Shown: positions 21,904 through 41,677 of the stretch, piece after piece
How positions within the stretch are numbered: the stretch's first letter is position 1
Layout of the letters: each line of letters begins with the position of its first letter
Assembly: GCA_047639615.1 (NCBI GenBank)
Contig: JBLIOL010000001.1
Span: 1 to 55,164, forward strand
Reading direction: 5' to 3'
Length of the DNA stretch: 55,164 bases
Source of the DNA: Planctomycetota bacterium
Lineage (GTDB): Bacteria > Planctomycetota > UBA1135 > GCA-002686595
Notes under the pieces: generated by a model
Told to the model about the DNA's origin: nothing
Databases searched by the model: none
Seen by the model: the letters and a program-made list of their open reading frames with translations, nothing else
Program-made: the position numbers and the translations under genes

Positions 21904-22926
21904 ATGCTGGAAGCTTCCCTCGAGCGCCTGACAGAAATGCACGCGCGCATGAAGACCGAACTTGGCCAGGTCATCGTCGGCCAAGACCAGGTCATCGAGC
22001 AGCTCCTCATGGCTGTGCTCACGCGCGGCCACTGCCTCCTGGTGGGCGTGCCTGGCCTGGCCAAGACGCTCATGATCTCGAGCCTGGCCAAGACCATGGA
22101 GCTCGACTTCAACCGCATTCAGTTCACGCCCGACCTGATGCCCTCGGACATCACCGGCACCGAGTTCCTGCACATCGACCCGGAGACCTCGGAGCGTTCC
22201 TTCCGCTTCATGGAAGGTCCCTTGTTCACCAACGTACTGCTGGCGGACGAGATCAACCGCACGCCGCCCAAGACTCAAGCTGCACTGCTTGAGGCCATGG
22301 TCGAGCGCCAGGTCACCAGCGGTGGCAAGACCCACGAGCTGCCCAACCCCTTCTTCGTGTTGGCCACTCAAAACCCGATCGAGCAAGAGGGCACCTATCC
22401 CCTGCCCGAAGCCCAGCTCGACCGCTTCATGTTCAAGGTGCAGGTGGGCTACCCCACCCAAGCCGAAGAGCGCGAGATCCTGCGCCGCACCACCGGCGGC
22501 GAGACTCAAAGCGTATCGAAGGTCGTTACCGGCGAAGAGCTCCTGGCCCTGCAAGCGACCGTGCGCGAACTGCCCGTGGCCGACGAGATCTACGATTACG
22601 CCCTGGCACTGACGCGCGGCACGCGCGTGCGCTCGGACACGCCGCTACCCTTTGTGACCGAGTTCGTCACCTGGGGCGCTGGCCCGCGCGCCGGTCAGTA
22701 CCTAATCCTAGGCGCCAAGGCACACGCCGCCGTCCGCGGCCACAGCCATGTGTCCGCCGAAGACGTGCGCGCCGTCGCCCACCCGGTACTGCGTCACCGC
22801 ATCGTGACCAACTTCGCCGCCCAAGCGGAGGGCATCACGTCGGACGTGATCATCGACCGCTTGCTGGAAACCGTAAAGCTCGGCGAAGGCGTCGGCGCTG
22901 GCCTCCCCGGCGTAACGTCGAATTAG
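21904..22926 (+). CDS. moxR: MoxR-family AAA+ ATPase
   Basis: VIVGQDQVIEQLL, Walker A LLVGVPGLAKT, Walker B/sensor LLADEINRTPPKTQAALLEAMVERQVT, NPIEQEGTYPLPEAQLDRF. Confidence 0.92.
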   Translation: MLEASLERLTEMHARMKTELGQVIVGQDQVIEQLLMAVLTRGHCLLVGVPGLAKTLMISSLAKTMELDFNRIQFTPDLMPSDITGTEFLHIDPETSERSFRFMEGPLFTNVLLADEINRTPPKTQAALLEAMVERQVTSGGKTHELPNPFFVLATQNPIEQEGTYPLPEAQLDRFMFKVQVGYPTQAEEREILRRTTGGETQSVSKVVTGEELLALQATVRELPVADEIYDYALALTRGTRVRSDTPLPFVTEFVTWGAGPRAGQYLILGAKAHAAVRGHSHVSAEDVRAVAHPVLRHRIVTNFAAQAEGITSDVIIDRLLETVKLGEGVGAGLPGVTSN

Positions 22927-22933
22927 CGCATTC

Positions 22934-23857
22934 ATGCCCGCACGTACCGGCGTAATCGACCCCGAGGTCCTGGACAGGCTAAACGGCTTGTCCTTGGTGG
23001 CACGCAAGGTGGTGGAAGGCTACATGGCCGGCCACCACACCTCGCCCCACCGCGGTAGCTCCGTGGAGTTCCGTCAGCACCGGCCGTACACGCCGGGCGA
23101 TGAGCTGCGCAGCATCGACTGGAAGGTCTTCGCGCGCTCCGACCGCCTGGTGGTCAAGGAGTACGTGGAGGAGACGCACCTCTCCCTGACCCTGATGCTC
23201 GACGCATCCGAGTCCATGGCCTACGGGTCGATCGAGGGTGAGCACGGCATCCGCACCAAGTTCGACTACGCGCGCTGGTGCGCTGCAGCCCTCGCGCACC
23301 TGACCCTCGGTCAGCGCGACACGGCGGGCCTGGTGATCTTCGACGAGAAGGAACGCGTCAAGGTCCCGCCGGCCAACGGTGCTCCCCAAGAGGCCGCGAT
23401 CCTGCAAGCCCTGTCGGAGGCGCGGCCCACCGGCCTCACCGCCGTGGGCGACGTGCTCGGCTGGCTCGGTAGCCGCCTAGCACACCGCGGCCTGACCGCG
23501 ATCTTCTCGGACTTCTTCGACGACCTCACGACCATCCGGCGCGGCCTCGAACAACTGGTGCACGGCGGTCATGAACCGATCCTGTTCCAGGTGCTCGACC
23601 CCGCCGAATTGAACTTCGATTTCAACGCACTGCTCAGGCTCGACGGGCTCGAAGGCACCGGCATTCATAAGATCGACCCCAAGGCCATCCGCGAGGCATA
23701 CCGCGCGGAGATCCAGGCCCACAACGAGCAGCTGGCAAAGGCCGCTCGACACCTCTCACTCGACTACGTGGTGATGACCACGGACGAGCCCCTCGACGCA
23801 GTCATTGCTGCGTACCTGGCCCGGCGTACCGCGCGGGCCCGTGGAGGCAGCCGCTGA
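22934..23857 (+). CDS. DUF58 (VWA-like) protein, MoxR partner
   Basis: HRGSSVEFRQHRPYTPGDELRSIDWKVFARSDRLVVKEY, then LMLDASESM. This is the typical DUF58 core, 7 nt after moxR. Confidence 0.88.
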   Translation: MPARTGVIDPEVLDRLNGLSLVARKVVEGYMAGHHTSPHRGSSVEFRQHRPYTPGDELRSIDWKVFARSDRLVVKEYVEETHLSLTLMLDASESMAYGSIEGEHGIRTKFDYARWCAAALAHLTLGQRDTAGLVIFDEKERVKVPPANGAPQEAAILQALSEARPTGLTAVGDVLGWLGSRLAHRGLTAIFSDFFDDLTTIRRGLEQLVHGGHEPILFQVLDPAELNFDFNALLRLDGLEGTGIHKIDPKAIREAYRAEIQAHNEQLAKAARHLSLDYVVMTTDEPLDAVIAAYLARRTARARGGSR

Positions 23858-23872
23858 TGGAGAACCCCCAGC

Positions 23873-40080: not shown

Positions 40081-40089
40081 AGCGGCACC

Positions 40090-40461
40090 ATGCAGGGCGG
40101 TCCGCCCAGCGAAGGTAAAGGTGAAGGTCAGAAGCCTCACGAGTCCGGCAAGAAGAAAGACCAGAGTGAGTCCGAGCCCAAGGAAGGCGAGGACGGCAAG
40201 AAGCCAGGCGAGAAGCCCCAGGGCGAAAAGCCCGACGGCAACCAGGCATCCACGCCTAATCCCCAGGACAACAAGCAAGGCGAAGCTCCCGAGCAGCCCG
40301 TGCAAGACGAGCGCGGGGCCAGCCCCGTGATCGACGTCTGGGGTGAGCTACCCATTCACCTGCGCGACATCTTCCGCGCCGAAGGTGGCGTGGACGTGCC
40401 CGCTCAGTACCGCGACTGGATCGACTCCTACTACCGGCGCCTCAACCGCCGCAGTCAGTAA
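40090..40461 (+). CDS. Lys/Glu/Pro-rich protein with conserved-looking C-terminal 'WGELP...YRDWIDSYYRRL' motif
   Basis: Good ORF but no signal peptide of its own. In frame with 39646..40080 across a single TGA. Low-complexity linker followed by an ordered ~45-aa tail. Confidence 0.55.
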   Translation: MQGGPPSEGKGEGQKPHESGKKKDQSESEPKEGEDGKKPGEKPQGEKPDGNQASTPNPQDNKQGEAPEQPVQDERGASPVIDVWGELPIHLRDIFRAEGGVDVPAQYRDWIDSYYRRLNRRSQ

Positions 40462-40471
40462 CAAGCGGCCC

Positions 40472-41677
40472 ATGGTGACCCTACGTGTGGCCGCCATGGG
40501 CCGATACTTTGTCTTGGCCCTAGCTCTAGCTCTGCAGGGCTACGCAGACGGACGTGCGAGCGACGGTCCGCCGCGGGCGATTCGCACGGCGCAGAAGATC
40601 ACCAGCGTCAGCAGCGCACGACAGGAGCCCGAGAGCGAGGGCCAAAGCCTGCCCGCGACACGGCCCGACCCCACGGAACTCGCCCTCGAACGCGGACTCG
40701 AGTTCCTGGCCAGCCAGCAGTCCCGCACGGGCACCGGCGCCCTGCCCTGCACCCACGGCGCCGAATTCGCCCCCGTCGGCGTCACCGCCCTCGGTGCACT
40801 GGCCTGGATGGGCGGCGGCTCGAGCCTGACCCGCGGCCCCTACAGTCCGCAGCTCAAGCTAGCGGTCAAGTACCTGCTGGATCATCAACTGCAAGAGGGT
40901 CCCGCCGCCGGCTACATCACCGACAGTGCCGACCAACGCTCCCAAACCCACGGCCACGGCCTAGCGACCCTGGCCCTGACCCAGGCCTACGCCCAGTCGC
41001 CGCGCTCACCCCAGGGCGCGCGCCTGCAGAAGGCCATCAGCGCTGCCGTAGTCCGCATCGAAGCCAGCCAGGGCATCGACGGCGGCTGGTTCTACGATCC
41101 GCACCCGACCACCGAGCAAGAGGGCTCCGTGACCGTCTGCTTGGTCTGGGCCCTACGCGGCGCACGCAACGCAGGCTTCAAGGTCGACGCGGCCGTGATC
41201 GCGAAGGCCATCACCTACGTGAAGTCTCTGCAGGCGAAGAACGGGGGCTTCCGCTACTCCCATAGCATGCCCACCACCTCCGTGGCTCTAACCGCGGCAA
41301 GCCTCTCTACCCTGCACGCCACCGGCATCTACGAGGGCGCCGTAGTCGAGGACGGCTACGGCTACATCTGGCGCGAGCTCAGCGCACGGGATCTGGACAG
41401 CGGCCAAATCGATCAACCGATCTTCCCCTTCTACGAGCGCATGTACCTATCGCAAGCCCTCTGGCAGCACCGGGACACGAAGATCTTCTGGACCTGGGCC
41501 ACGCCCGAACAACAACGCGTACTGCGCGCGCAGCACGCCGACGGCTCCTGGGAAGACAGGCGCCTCAGCGCCGGCGGCGATCCCGTGGTCGCGCGTTACG
41601 GTGGCGCCTATGCGACCGCCGTGAACTGCCTATTCCTGGCGGTACCCCGGGGCTCGCTCCCGGTCTTCACGCGCTGA
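40472..41677 (+). CDS. Secreted prenyltransferase / squalene-cyclase-repeat (alpha/alpha toroid) protein, paralog of 33214..34350
   Basis: ATG 40472 (or 40496) gives YFVLALALALQGYADG, which is signal-like. Repeats QGIDGGWFYD, AKNGGFRYS, HADGSWED. Ends ...PRGSLPVFTR, like its paralog. Confidence 0.75.
   Translation: MVTLRVAAMGRYFVLALALALQGYADGRASDGPPRAIRTAQKITSVSSARQEPESEGQSLPATRPDPTELALERGLEFLASQQSRTGTGALPCTHGAEFAPVGVTALGALAWMGGGSSLTRGPYSPQLKLAVKYLLDHQLQEGPAAGYITDSADQRSQTHGHGLATLALTQAYAQSPRSPQGARLQKAISAAVVRIEASQGIDGGWFYDPHPTTEQEGSVTVCLVWALRGARNAGFKVDAAVIAKAITYVKSLQAKNGGFRYSHSMPTTSVALTAASLSTLHATGIYEGAVVEDGYGYIWRELSARDLDSGQIDQPIFPFYERMYLSQALWQHRDTKIFWTWATPEQQRVLRAQHADGSWEDRRLSAGGDPVVARYGGAYATAVNCLFLAVPRGSLPVFTR

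Follow-up and report, generated by a model that had tools for sequence, protein, structure and literature searches.

We analysed a 55,164-nucleotide stretch of contig JBLIOL010000001.1 from the assembly GCA_047639615.1 (Planctomycetota bacterium), hereafter the window, and found that it carries a conserved planctomycete architecture of eleven genes, described here for the first time, at 19655–41677. From its sequence, this array appears to be a lineage-specific elaboration of a widespread MoxR-DUF58-BatA-DUF4175-GATase1-like operon. We give roughly even chances to the reading that 19655–41677 encodes one multi-subunit envelope system – a MoxR/DUF58-driven, inner-membrane-anchored machine for periplasmic assembly or maturation. 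One of its products is most likely an exported selenoprotein subunit, a candidate also reported here for the first time. The features of the array are as follows (ORF, open reading frame; AF2, AlphaFold2; SECIS, selenocysteine insertion sequence).

19655–21706, plus strand: secreted 683-residue propeller protein (PQQ_2, 7.7e-7; signal-peptide-like N-terminus)
21904–22926, plus strand: MoxR-proper (MRP) AAA+ ATPase, cytoplasmic (AAA_3, 6e-63; AAA_lid_2, 1.5e-17)
22934–23857, plus strand: DUF58 protein, VWA-like, cytoplasmic (DUF58, 7e-42; VWA_2, 3.6e-6)
23873–26131, plus strand: BatA-like inner-membrane protein (BatA, 8e-16; TIGR02226, 1.2e-19; VWA_2; CARDB; GATase1_like)
26128–28569, plus strand: VWA2, second VWA membrane protein, 813 residues (VWA, 1.5e-5; GATase1_like)
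28583–33217, plus strand: secreted 1544-residue propeller protein (PQQ_2, 4e-39 in four stretches)
33214–34350, plus strand: secreted alpha/alpha-toroid 1 (SQHop_cyclase_C, 1.2e-11)
34351–36696, plus strand: P7, 781-residue membrane protein (AF2 model, pLDDT 86.7; BLASTP matches to DUF4175 proteins)
36696–39560, plus strand: secreted 954-residue coiled-coil-like protein (signal-peptide-like N-terminus, composition)
39646–40461, plus strand: small exported protein, a single gene (one frame with a single TGA; called as two ORFs)
40078–40080, plus strand: in-frame UGA, candidate selenocysteine codon (context GDGT-U-SGTM; Sec145)
40087–40116, plus strand: SECIS-like hairpin (core GGGCG-GUC-CGCCC at 40095–40107; RNAfold)
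40472–41677, plus strand: secreted alpha/alpha-toroid 2 (SQHop_cyclase_C, 3.6e-5)

Conservation was examined across 80 GTDB species loci, together with further look-ups. In 42 of the 43 loci with enough flanking sequence, the genes for BatA, VWA2, propeller, toroid 1, P7, coiled coil, small protein and toroid 2 are complete and colinear (P7 identity in the colinear relatives, 36–58%), and we therefore do not regard the gene order as a product of chance. A second deep planctomycete lineage (P7 ~24% identical; loci L092 and L093) retains the order BatA-VWA-propeller-toroid-P7-coiled coil and lacks the second toroid; L092 continues with a small protein, and in L093 the contig breaks off within the gene for the coiled coil. 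Pirellula staleyi carries a reduced array that reads BatA-PQQ/HEAT-PQQ/HEAT-VWA-P7 (Psta_2695). The initial annotation of this DNA had staked its proposal on co-conservation of the downstream genes with the MoxR/VWA core, and such co-conservation is what we find, both in the 42 colinear loci and in the second lineage.

Proteins identical to those of the window are confined to two metagenome sets of contigs, Logan SRR28416802 and SRR28416755. Nearly all P7 homologues come from uncultured Planctomycetota, and the cultured Engelhardtia mirabilis Pla133 has one that is 37% identical. The host is thus apparently an uncultured planctomycete that has Engelhardtia and the 'Saltatorellus' clade as relatives, a group that has cultured members and is known for shape-shifting cells. 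The Saltatorellota preprint does not mention the array genes. Two features of the comparison set probably reflect data quality: one array contig (L026, JBLIMI010000138.1) is binned in a metagenome-assembled genome labelled 'Candidatus Paceibacteria', probably through binning contamination, and in the long-read locus L088/L084 (contig_158, 17691–20602) toroid 1 and P7 appear as several shorter ORFs, for which frameshift errors are likelier than pseudogenes.

Within the window, plus-strand genes run without a break from 18040 to 41677. The initial annotation listed eleven plus-strand genes between 21904 and 41677, tightly packed. A check of ORFs and junctions recovered all eleven frames, the ATGA overlaps at 26128 and 33214, the TAA-ATG junction at 34351 and the TAATG junction at 36696; the other gaps measure 7, 15, 13 and 10 nucleotides, with one of 85 nucleotides before 39646. 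The ORFs stand and the count does not, as 39646–40080 and 40090–40461 lie in the same frame, separated by a single TGA, and form one gene, leaving ten in that interval. The eleventh lies upstream. In all three relatives used to test the upstream boundary (L086, L087 and L088; look-ups centred on VWA2), a gene for a 660–690-residue propeller precedes MoxR, DUF58 and BatA, also where the genes beyond it are different; we therefore place the start of the array at 19655 rather than 21904. No plus-strand terminator-like site or sigma-70-like promoter was found inside 19000–40487, which is weak evidence because the consensus may differ from planctomycete signals. A weak 5-bp terminator-like site (40488–40503) falls within the start of the toroid 2 gene.

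Near the array start, the only sizeable non-coding stretch is a 197-nucleotide gap before moxR (21707–21903); it includes a patch rich in AT (…CCGTATATATGGCC…) and may be a promoter or leader region. Further upstream, 4 nucleotides are shared by enolase (18040–19320) with a 113-residue single-transmembrane ORF (19317–19658), and again by that ORF with the first propeller gene (from 19655), so that the coupled co-directional run starts at enolase. The pair of eno and the small transmembrane ORF also stands upstream of the array in L087 and L088 and not in L086. We take this ORF, which has no Pfam match, to be possibly FtsB/DivIC-like.

Profile searches bore out the core proposed by the initial annotation (MoxR, DUF58, BatA and VWA, by matches to AAA_3, DUF58, BatA_N/TIGR02226 and VWA), as well as its other domain calls – a PQQ-type propeller and two toroids. 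The ATPase belongs to the MRP subfamily, scoring 211 bits against AAA_3 (cut-off 27) and matching the Cytophaga MoxR structure (PDB 2R44) at 6e-84. The DUF58 protein, presumed to be the adaptor of MoxR, carries the metal-ion-dependent adhesion site (MIDAS) motif DASES, in LMLDASESMAY. By hydropathy, neither MoxR nor DUF58 has a transmembrane segment or signal peptide, and everything past DUF58 has one or the other, in agreement with the earlier statement that all downstream products are exported or membrane-anchored.

The BatA-like protein has transmembrane segments at residues 5–23, 53–71 and 727–745 (hydropathy), giving an N-terminal double-transmembrane anchor with a basic cytoplasmic loop, a periplasmic region with VWA (MIDAS motif DGSAS), CARDB/immunoglobulin (Ig)-like and GATase1-like domains, and a C-terminal transmembrane segment. 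VWA2 was modelled similarly (AF2, pLDDT 80.7), with two transmembrane segments followed by VWA, an Ig-like sandwich, a GATase1-like alpha/beta domain, a second sandwich and a C-terminal transmembrane segment; its MIDAS motif is DSSAS. Foldseek returned generic tandem-Ig, VWA and OST48-like scaffold matches for VWA2 at low TM-scores, the best structural analogues including the non-catalytic OST48/Wbp1 scaffold and ANTXR2, also at low TM-scores. At 47–72% identity, VWA2 ranks second in conservation among the array genes, behind toroid 1. In the three inner-membrane subunits (BatA-like, VWA2 and P7) the VWA-MIDAS, Ig-like and GATase1-like domains are thus periplasmic, and cytoplasmic exposure is limited to short basic loops or, in P7, a 75-residue insert. 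The Borrelia BatA homologue BB0173 is likewise an inner-membrane protein whose VWA domain was placed in the periplasm experimentally (PMC5700661).

The combination of MoxR, VWA and propeller proteins also recalls the MoxR-vWA-beta-propeller ternary systems of biological conflict, and the Pfam model bpMoxR does match the ATPase (3e-13). We regard a defence role as effectively refuted. The AAA_3 match is far stronger (6e-63), the VWA proteins and propellers are periplasmic, effector domains were not detected, and conservation is vertical across a class-level clade. None of the ten proteins compared with the PADLOC models gave a match. The array is flanked by housekeeping genes (enolase, pantoate ligase, HPPK and CDP-alcohol phosphatidyltransferase) and GC content across the window is uniform (62–70%); the flanks and the PADLOC result together place the array on the core chromosome rather than in a mobile or defence island.

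Signal peptides are present on six subunits: both propeller proteins, both toroids, the coiled-coil protein and the small protein with the candidate selenocysteine. The 683-residue protein combines an N-terminal helical region with a PQQ_2/BamB-like propeller, and the 1544-residue protein combines helical (TPR/HEAT-like) regions with two such propellers. Assignment of the latter as a pyrroloquinoline quinone (PQQ) dehydrogenase was rejected, as it scores 41.5 bits against TIGR03075 (cut-off 480) and 36 against TIGR03074 (cut-off 833), and it matches the Pfam PQQ model over positions 52–204 of 595 only. Toroid 1 has prenyltransferase/squalene-cyclase-type QW repeats (squalene-hopene cyclase, PDB 2SQC, 2e-9) and is 59–75% identical across nearly all relatives. 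Toroid 2, conserved at the array end, is its paralogue (31% identity; BLASTP 2e-35).

P7, the 954-residue protein and the two small ORFs matched no Pfam or NCBIfam family. A model of P7 built from a 20-sequence alignment shows an N-terminal transmembrane hairpin, a helical insert of ~75 residues, a third transmembrane segment, about four Ig-like sandwiches and a C-terminal helical bundle; the basic N-terminus (N-in) places the insert in the cytoplasm. P7 had been described as a two-transmembrane protein with a large extracytoplasmic domain, and the large periplasmic part holds, whereas the count of two gives way to three segments and the cytoplasmic insert. Foldseek returned only generic tandem-Ig matches for P7, at low TM-scores. 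An exhaustive profile search recovered 10,880 cluster representatives at E<=1e-3, making this a very large family.

A direct comparison with Pfam DUF4175 (PF13779) gave no match for P7 at E<=0.01 or even E<=1, and only 1 of 20 close homologues matches. The N-terminal 450–560 residues of P7 nonetheless align to three proteins, P0415, P0414 and P0410 (BLASTP, 2e-12 to 2e-14), of which P0415 is a bona fide member of Pfam DUF4175 (3.4e-12; 45.7 bits against 27.3) encoded directly after BatA in L091. That locus is a minimal MoxR-DUF58-BatA-DUF4175-GATase1_like operon with none of the propeller or toroid genes. The alignment to P0415 makes P7 a divergent DUF4175-superfamily protein below the Pfam threshold; by sequence it appears to be a DUF4175-type core component, a relationship recognised here for the first time. 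The earlier view that the extension replaces BatC, BatD and BatE is thus too simple, as P7 is homologous to the DUF4175 protein that follows BatA in the minimal operon.

The 954-residue protein, whose gene always follows P7, is helical, rich in Ala, Glu, Leu and Gln (A 20%, E 15%) and free of Cys. AT skew is strongly positive at 36000–40000 (0.27–0.31, against ~0.05 elsewhere), coinciding with this Ala/Glu/Gln-rich gene, and is a codon-composition effect rather than a replication signal. Homologues of the coiled coil give sub-threshold DUF4175 matches at profile positions ~600–740, and the C-termini of fused DUF4175 proteins (…FPKEYETVIAEYLKKL in P0415; …PPGFEASLKLYFEAL in P0414) look by eye like the tail of the small protein. 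A hidden Markov model of that tail gave no significant match to the C-termini of the fused DUF4175 proteins (E=0.8 for P0415), so a three-way division of an ancestral DUF4175 protein into P7, coiled coil and small tail protein stays tentative.

The small protein comprises a signal peptide, a helical domain, the candidate selenocysteine (Sec145), a low-complexity linker and an invariant tail (WG.LP...YRDWIDxYYRRL), and as a whole it too matches no Pfam or NCBIfam family. The initial annotation counted this locus as two genes; it is instead one gene split by the in-frame TGA, as shown by fused ORFs in 28 relatives and by alternation of TGA with Cys. A fused ORF of 243–310 residues was found in 28 of the 50 loci where both halves were located. 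Among 56 aligned GTDB-species loci, the site is TGA in 22 (motif …EQGGT-TGA-SG.M…), Cys in 7 (…GGS-C-SS…) and neither in 27. An independent scan for the tail motif in JGI and other metagenomes yielded 74 loci (29 TGA, 15 Cys and 30 neither), in which the in-frame stop was always TGA. UGA therefore occupies a Cys site, as selenoprotein genes require, in both collections (22 + 29 TGA against 7 + 15 Cys forms).

The metagenome loci include the variants HPHPPGGT-U-TSSGGL-U, GGT-U-KGGSGGL-C and QHEP-C-SSSS-C-ESAGGM-C. These U..U, U..C and C..C forms indicate that selenocysteine and Cys alternate at two positions, next to His, and these paired residues, with the nearby HxH, look like a metal- or redox-active motif. 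In two soil-metagenome loci (L096, 1183–1206; L116, 310–342), two in-frame TGAs lie 7–10 codons apart, each with a downstream hairpin. A TAG lies in frame at another position of the small gene in L067 (6885), without a SECIS-like hairpin, and is probably a disruption or assembly error.

Consistent with selenocysteine decoding, a hairpin follows the UGA at a fixed spacing. In 20 of the 22 TGA forms there are 5–9 uninterrupted base pairs and a GU-containing loop that starts 22–28 nucleotides past the U of UGA; in the window, counted from that U, the loop GU is at positions 23–24. Stems are compensatory between species (GGGCGAC/GTCGTCC, GGAGGGC/GYCCTCC, CTGGCTC/GAGCCAG, TCCGGC/GCCGGA and GGGGGGT/ACCCCCC). 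We scored hairpins under constraints on position and loop, with a synonymous-codon null and negative controls. Resampling of synonymous codons gave a null mean of 1.35 bp, with p=0.03 for the window and p<=0.04 in 20 of 22 TGA relatives; the hairpin was found in none of the 7 loci with Cys and in 1 of the 26 of other form. As background, 1.66 Mb contained 1,616 in-frame TGAs with a long open frame on either side, of which 26 had a hairpin of at least 7 bp, 15 of these being the small-gene site (hairpin background frequency, 0.7%). The same scorer recovers the Escherichia coli fdhF SECIS, with its GGUC loop at offset 22, and the small gene of the distant-lineage locus L090 is a TGA form with a GGUCA loop at offset 25.

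Other approaches to this site were set aside. Hairpin free energy does not discriminate: whether the site is TGA, Cys or something else, the coding sequence, GC-rich and of low complexity, folds just as readily. Counting covariation from MAFFT alignments was dropped when the short stems proved mis-registered with or without N padding. Partner Cys residues that covary with the selenocysteine/Cys state were sought in the two toroids, in P7, in the coiled coil and in VWA2; correlations appear in some columns, which are confounded by phylogeny and were not used. An Rfam scan of 39600–40500 gave chance-level matches only and no matching model.

Could the TGA at 40078 instead be a true stop, yielding a 144-residue secreted protein and a re-initiated 123-residue protein, or be read through without selenocysteine? 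The window and 12 relatives have an ATG 9 nucleotides past the TGA, two ORFs are what gene callers predict, TGA (74%) outnumbers the other stops in these genomes, and selenocysteine decoding is here a prediction from the loci. Yet at least five TGA forms have no nearby start codon, and in others the only candidates are CTG, TTG or GTG codons or an ATG farther away. Cys forms, too, keep the Met that follows the site, so this Met is a protein residue rather than a start, and after re-initiation the C-terminal half, which holds the most conserved, invariant tail, would have no signal peptide. These points make re-initiation unlikely. A stop also sits poorly with Cys at the same site in 22 homologues, with the U..U, U..C and C..C variants, and with a covarying hairpin at SECIS spacing that is specific to TGA forms. 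We consider a true stop or plain readthrough quite improbable, and the small protein very probably a selenoprotein, a candidate identified from sequence patterns. Complete selenocysteine machinery is documented in other Planctomycetes (PMC4807772).

The gene resembles E. coli fdhF-type selenoprotein genes in its in-frame UGA, its Cys homologues and its GGUC/GUU-loop hairpin 22–28 nucleotides past the UGA. Unlike them, it encodes a small protein without a Pfam or NCBIfam family, apparently exported by a Sec-type signal peptide, with selenocysteine in a flexible loop and no recognisable redox fold. We found no paper that links selenoproteins with MoxR systems.

How does the array compare with characterized MoxR systems? 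Its first resemblance is to the Bat operon of Bacteroides, Leptospira and Borrelia, with which it shares MoxR-proper, DUF58, a BatA_N double-transmembrane VWA protein and a second transmembrane VWA protein in the same order. In contrast to that operon, profile searches of the eleven products detected no BatD, BatC or BatE (TPR, SH3). The two VWA proteins of the array have over twice the length and include extra Ig and GATase1-like domains, and seven further genes follow or precede the core, with propeller, toroid and P7 after VWA2.

The RL3499–RL3502 operon of Rhizobium leguminosarum (MoxR, DUF58 and two conserved transmembrane proteins) is reportedly needed for envelope integrity and cell shape (Vanderlinde et al. 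2011). Core logic and gene order of the array appear to match this type and the minimal operon of L091; P7 is homologous to the N-terminal ~450 residues of DUF4175 (the transmembrane region and first Ig-like domains), and VWA2 has a GATase1-like domain, as in the L091-type operon. With respect to the MoxR-DUF58-TIGR02226-DUF4175 operon, as judged by family profiles and BLASTP, three families score above threshold in the array and the fourth is represented only by a distant homologue. Unlike these operons, the array tentatively spreads the DUF4175-type function over P7, the coiled coil and the small tail protein, and it adds propellers, toroids and the candidate selenoprotein subunit. RL3499 itself is required for membrane integrity and cell morphology (PMC3893208).

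The closest mechanistic precedent, absent from the initial annotation, is MxaRSACKL, in which genes for MoxR, DUF58 and VWA proteins accompany that for a periplasmic PQQ-type propeller; no other such system has a demonstrated biochemical output, in this case Ca2+ insertion (PMC12276312). Equivalents of MxaA, MxaJ and MxaK were not identified in the array, whose propellers are BamB-like scaffolds rather than dehydrogenases and which has many additional structural subunits. In logic, the array is closer to MxaRSACKL and the MoxR-DUF58-TIGR02226-DUF4175 operon than to the full Bat operon.

This precedent raises the possibility that MoxR, DUF58 and the VWA proteins form a transient chaperone that loads metal into the propellers, with the small protein as metallochaperone and no stable machine. 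MxaR (MoxR) and MxaS (DUF58), along with MxaA, MxaC, MxaK and MxaL, are all needed for Ca2+ incorporation into methanol dehydrogenase (PMC12276312), PQQ-type propellers lie within the operon here and in Pirellula, and the loop variants of the small protein (HxH...U...C/U, C...C...C and U...M) resemble a metal ligand set. However, the propellers are of the BamB-like PQQ_2 type, fall short of PQQ-dehydrogenase models by the margins given above (41.5 bits, cut-off 480) and contain large helical regions of a scaffolding kind; a 954-residue coiled coil, a membrane protein with Ig domains and two toroids would be superfluous for a transient chaperone; and many small-protein homologues have no ligand residue in the loop at all. 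We view metal insertion of this kind as conceivable and somewhat improbable.

Under the reading to which we give even chances, that of a single assembly or maturation machine, a MoxR hexamer and DUF58 would spend ATP on remodelling the membrane subunits through their cytoplasmic segments, with contacts possible only at the basic BatA loop, the N-terminus and short loop of VWA2, the two C-terminal tails, and the N-terminus and insert of P7. Remodelling would switch the periplasmic MIDAS sites, and by the switched domains the propeller, toroid, coiled-coil and small proteins would be captured, loaded or locked in place within a periplasmic assembly anchored to the inner membrane. The selenocysteine/Cys loop of the small protein, with His or Met, may contribute a redox- or metal-dependent accessory step. 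Least certain is the physiological output, which might be envelope integrity or morphogenesis, as for Rhizobium RL3499–RL3502. That MoxR ATPases and their VWA/MIDAS cofactors mature or assemble specific complexes is established for other systems (PMC3893208). The fixed gene order and overlapping stops lead us to prefer a stoichiometric complex.

Several observations weigh against this reading and against its selenoprotein component. L090 encodes a propeller-toroid-toroid-P7-coiled coil-small protein module with no MoxR or BatA within 10 kb, and common descent may account for part of the synteny seen inside a single phylum. No tRNA-Sec was found in the window or in 1.6 Mb of the relatives' loci (~20 kb each, not whole genomes), and ~40% of small-protein homologues have no selenocysteine, Cys or His at the site. 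From its absence in so many lineages we take the chemistry of the site to be dispensable for the core function. Directly upstream of the L090 module come genes for a Ser/Thr kinase and for a rhodanese (1634–2858); rhodanese is a sulfur/selenium-transfer fold, and the small gene that it accompanies is a TGA form.

L090 also bears on whether the array is two independent adjacent systems, one a Bat-like MoxR-DUF58-BatA-VWA set and the other a secreted or surface module, for example for adhesion or polymer binding. There the second module stands alone, just as L091 has the first with a fused DUF4175 protein and no propeller or toroid genes. We nevertheless think two systems unlikely: P7-type (DUF4175) proteins directly follow BatA in the minimal operon, start/stop overlaps span the supposed boundary at 28569/28583 and beyond, and in 42 of 43 genomes, as in the second deep lineage, the modules stay joined with their order unchanged. 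The module in L090 may work without the ATPase. Of the initial proposal that the genes encode one MoxR-assembled complex, the envelope location, tight coupling and co-conservation are upheld, and a single machine is likely, not proven. More tentative still is a stronger version, in which the small subunit would found an undescribed exported selenoprotein family, its loop serving as the redox or metal centre of a MoxR/VWA machine that assembles or matures periplasmic propellers; we hold this as a possibility only.

Downstream of the array, the window encodes three proteins (44855–51324), one with NHL repeats, one a di-haem cytochrome c peroxidase (CCP_MauG, 1e-38) and one with LVIVD repeats, separated from toroid 2 by two minus-strand genes without a Pfam match (41630–42577 and 43130–44761). 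In L003 the NHL, CCP_MauG and LVIVD genes directly follow toroid 2 on the same strand (17411–22388), and one or more of them are detectable in ~15 relatives; they may form a loosely linked redox neighbourhood of the array. Two large minus-strand ORFs elsewhere in the window (8276–11191, 971 residues; 53244–55067, 607 residues) have no Pfam match.

MoxR-DUF58-VWA operons occur in many bacterial phyla, also in pathogens (among them Francisella, Borrelia, Leptospira, Bacteroides, relatives of Brucella, and Mycobacterium), and apart from the methanol-dehydrogenase case we know of no defined biochemical role for them. The planctomycete array is informative as its presumed partners or clients – propellers, toroids and coiled coil – are encoded in the same operon and as it indicates that a DUF4175-type membrane protein belongs to the conserved core. 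The small-protein loop, which alternates among selenocysteine, Cys and nothing, is a natural experiment that hints at a dispensable redox or metal step, in what is probably a new selenoprotein family that routine gene callers divide into two 'hypothetical proteins'. If the small subunit is indeed such a centre of a MoxR/VWA machine, it would offer a first biochemical handle on Bat-like/MoxR-DUF58 envelope systems and would connect selenium or thiol chemistry with the long-known 'aerotolerance' phenotype. The array overturns nothing; it gives a widespread, opaque system testable partners and a chemically suggestive residue.

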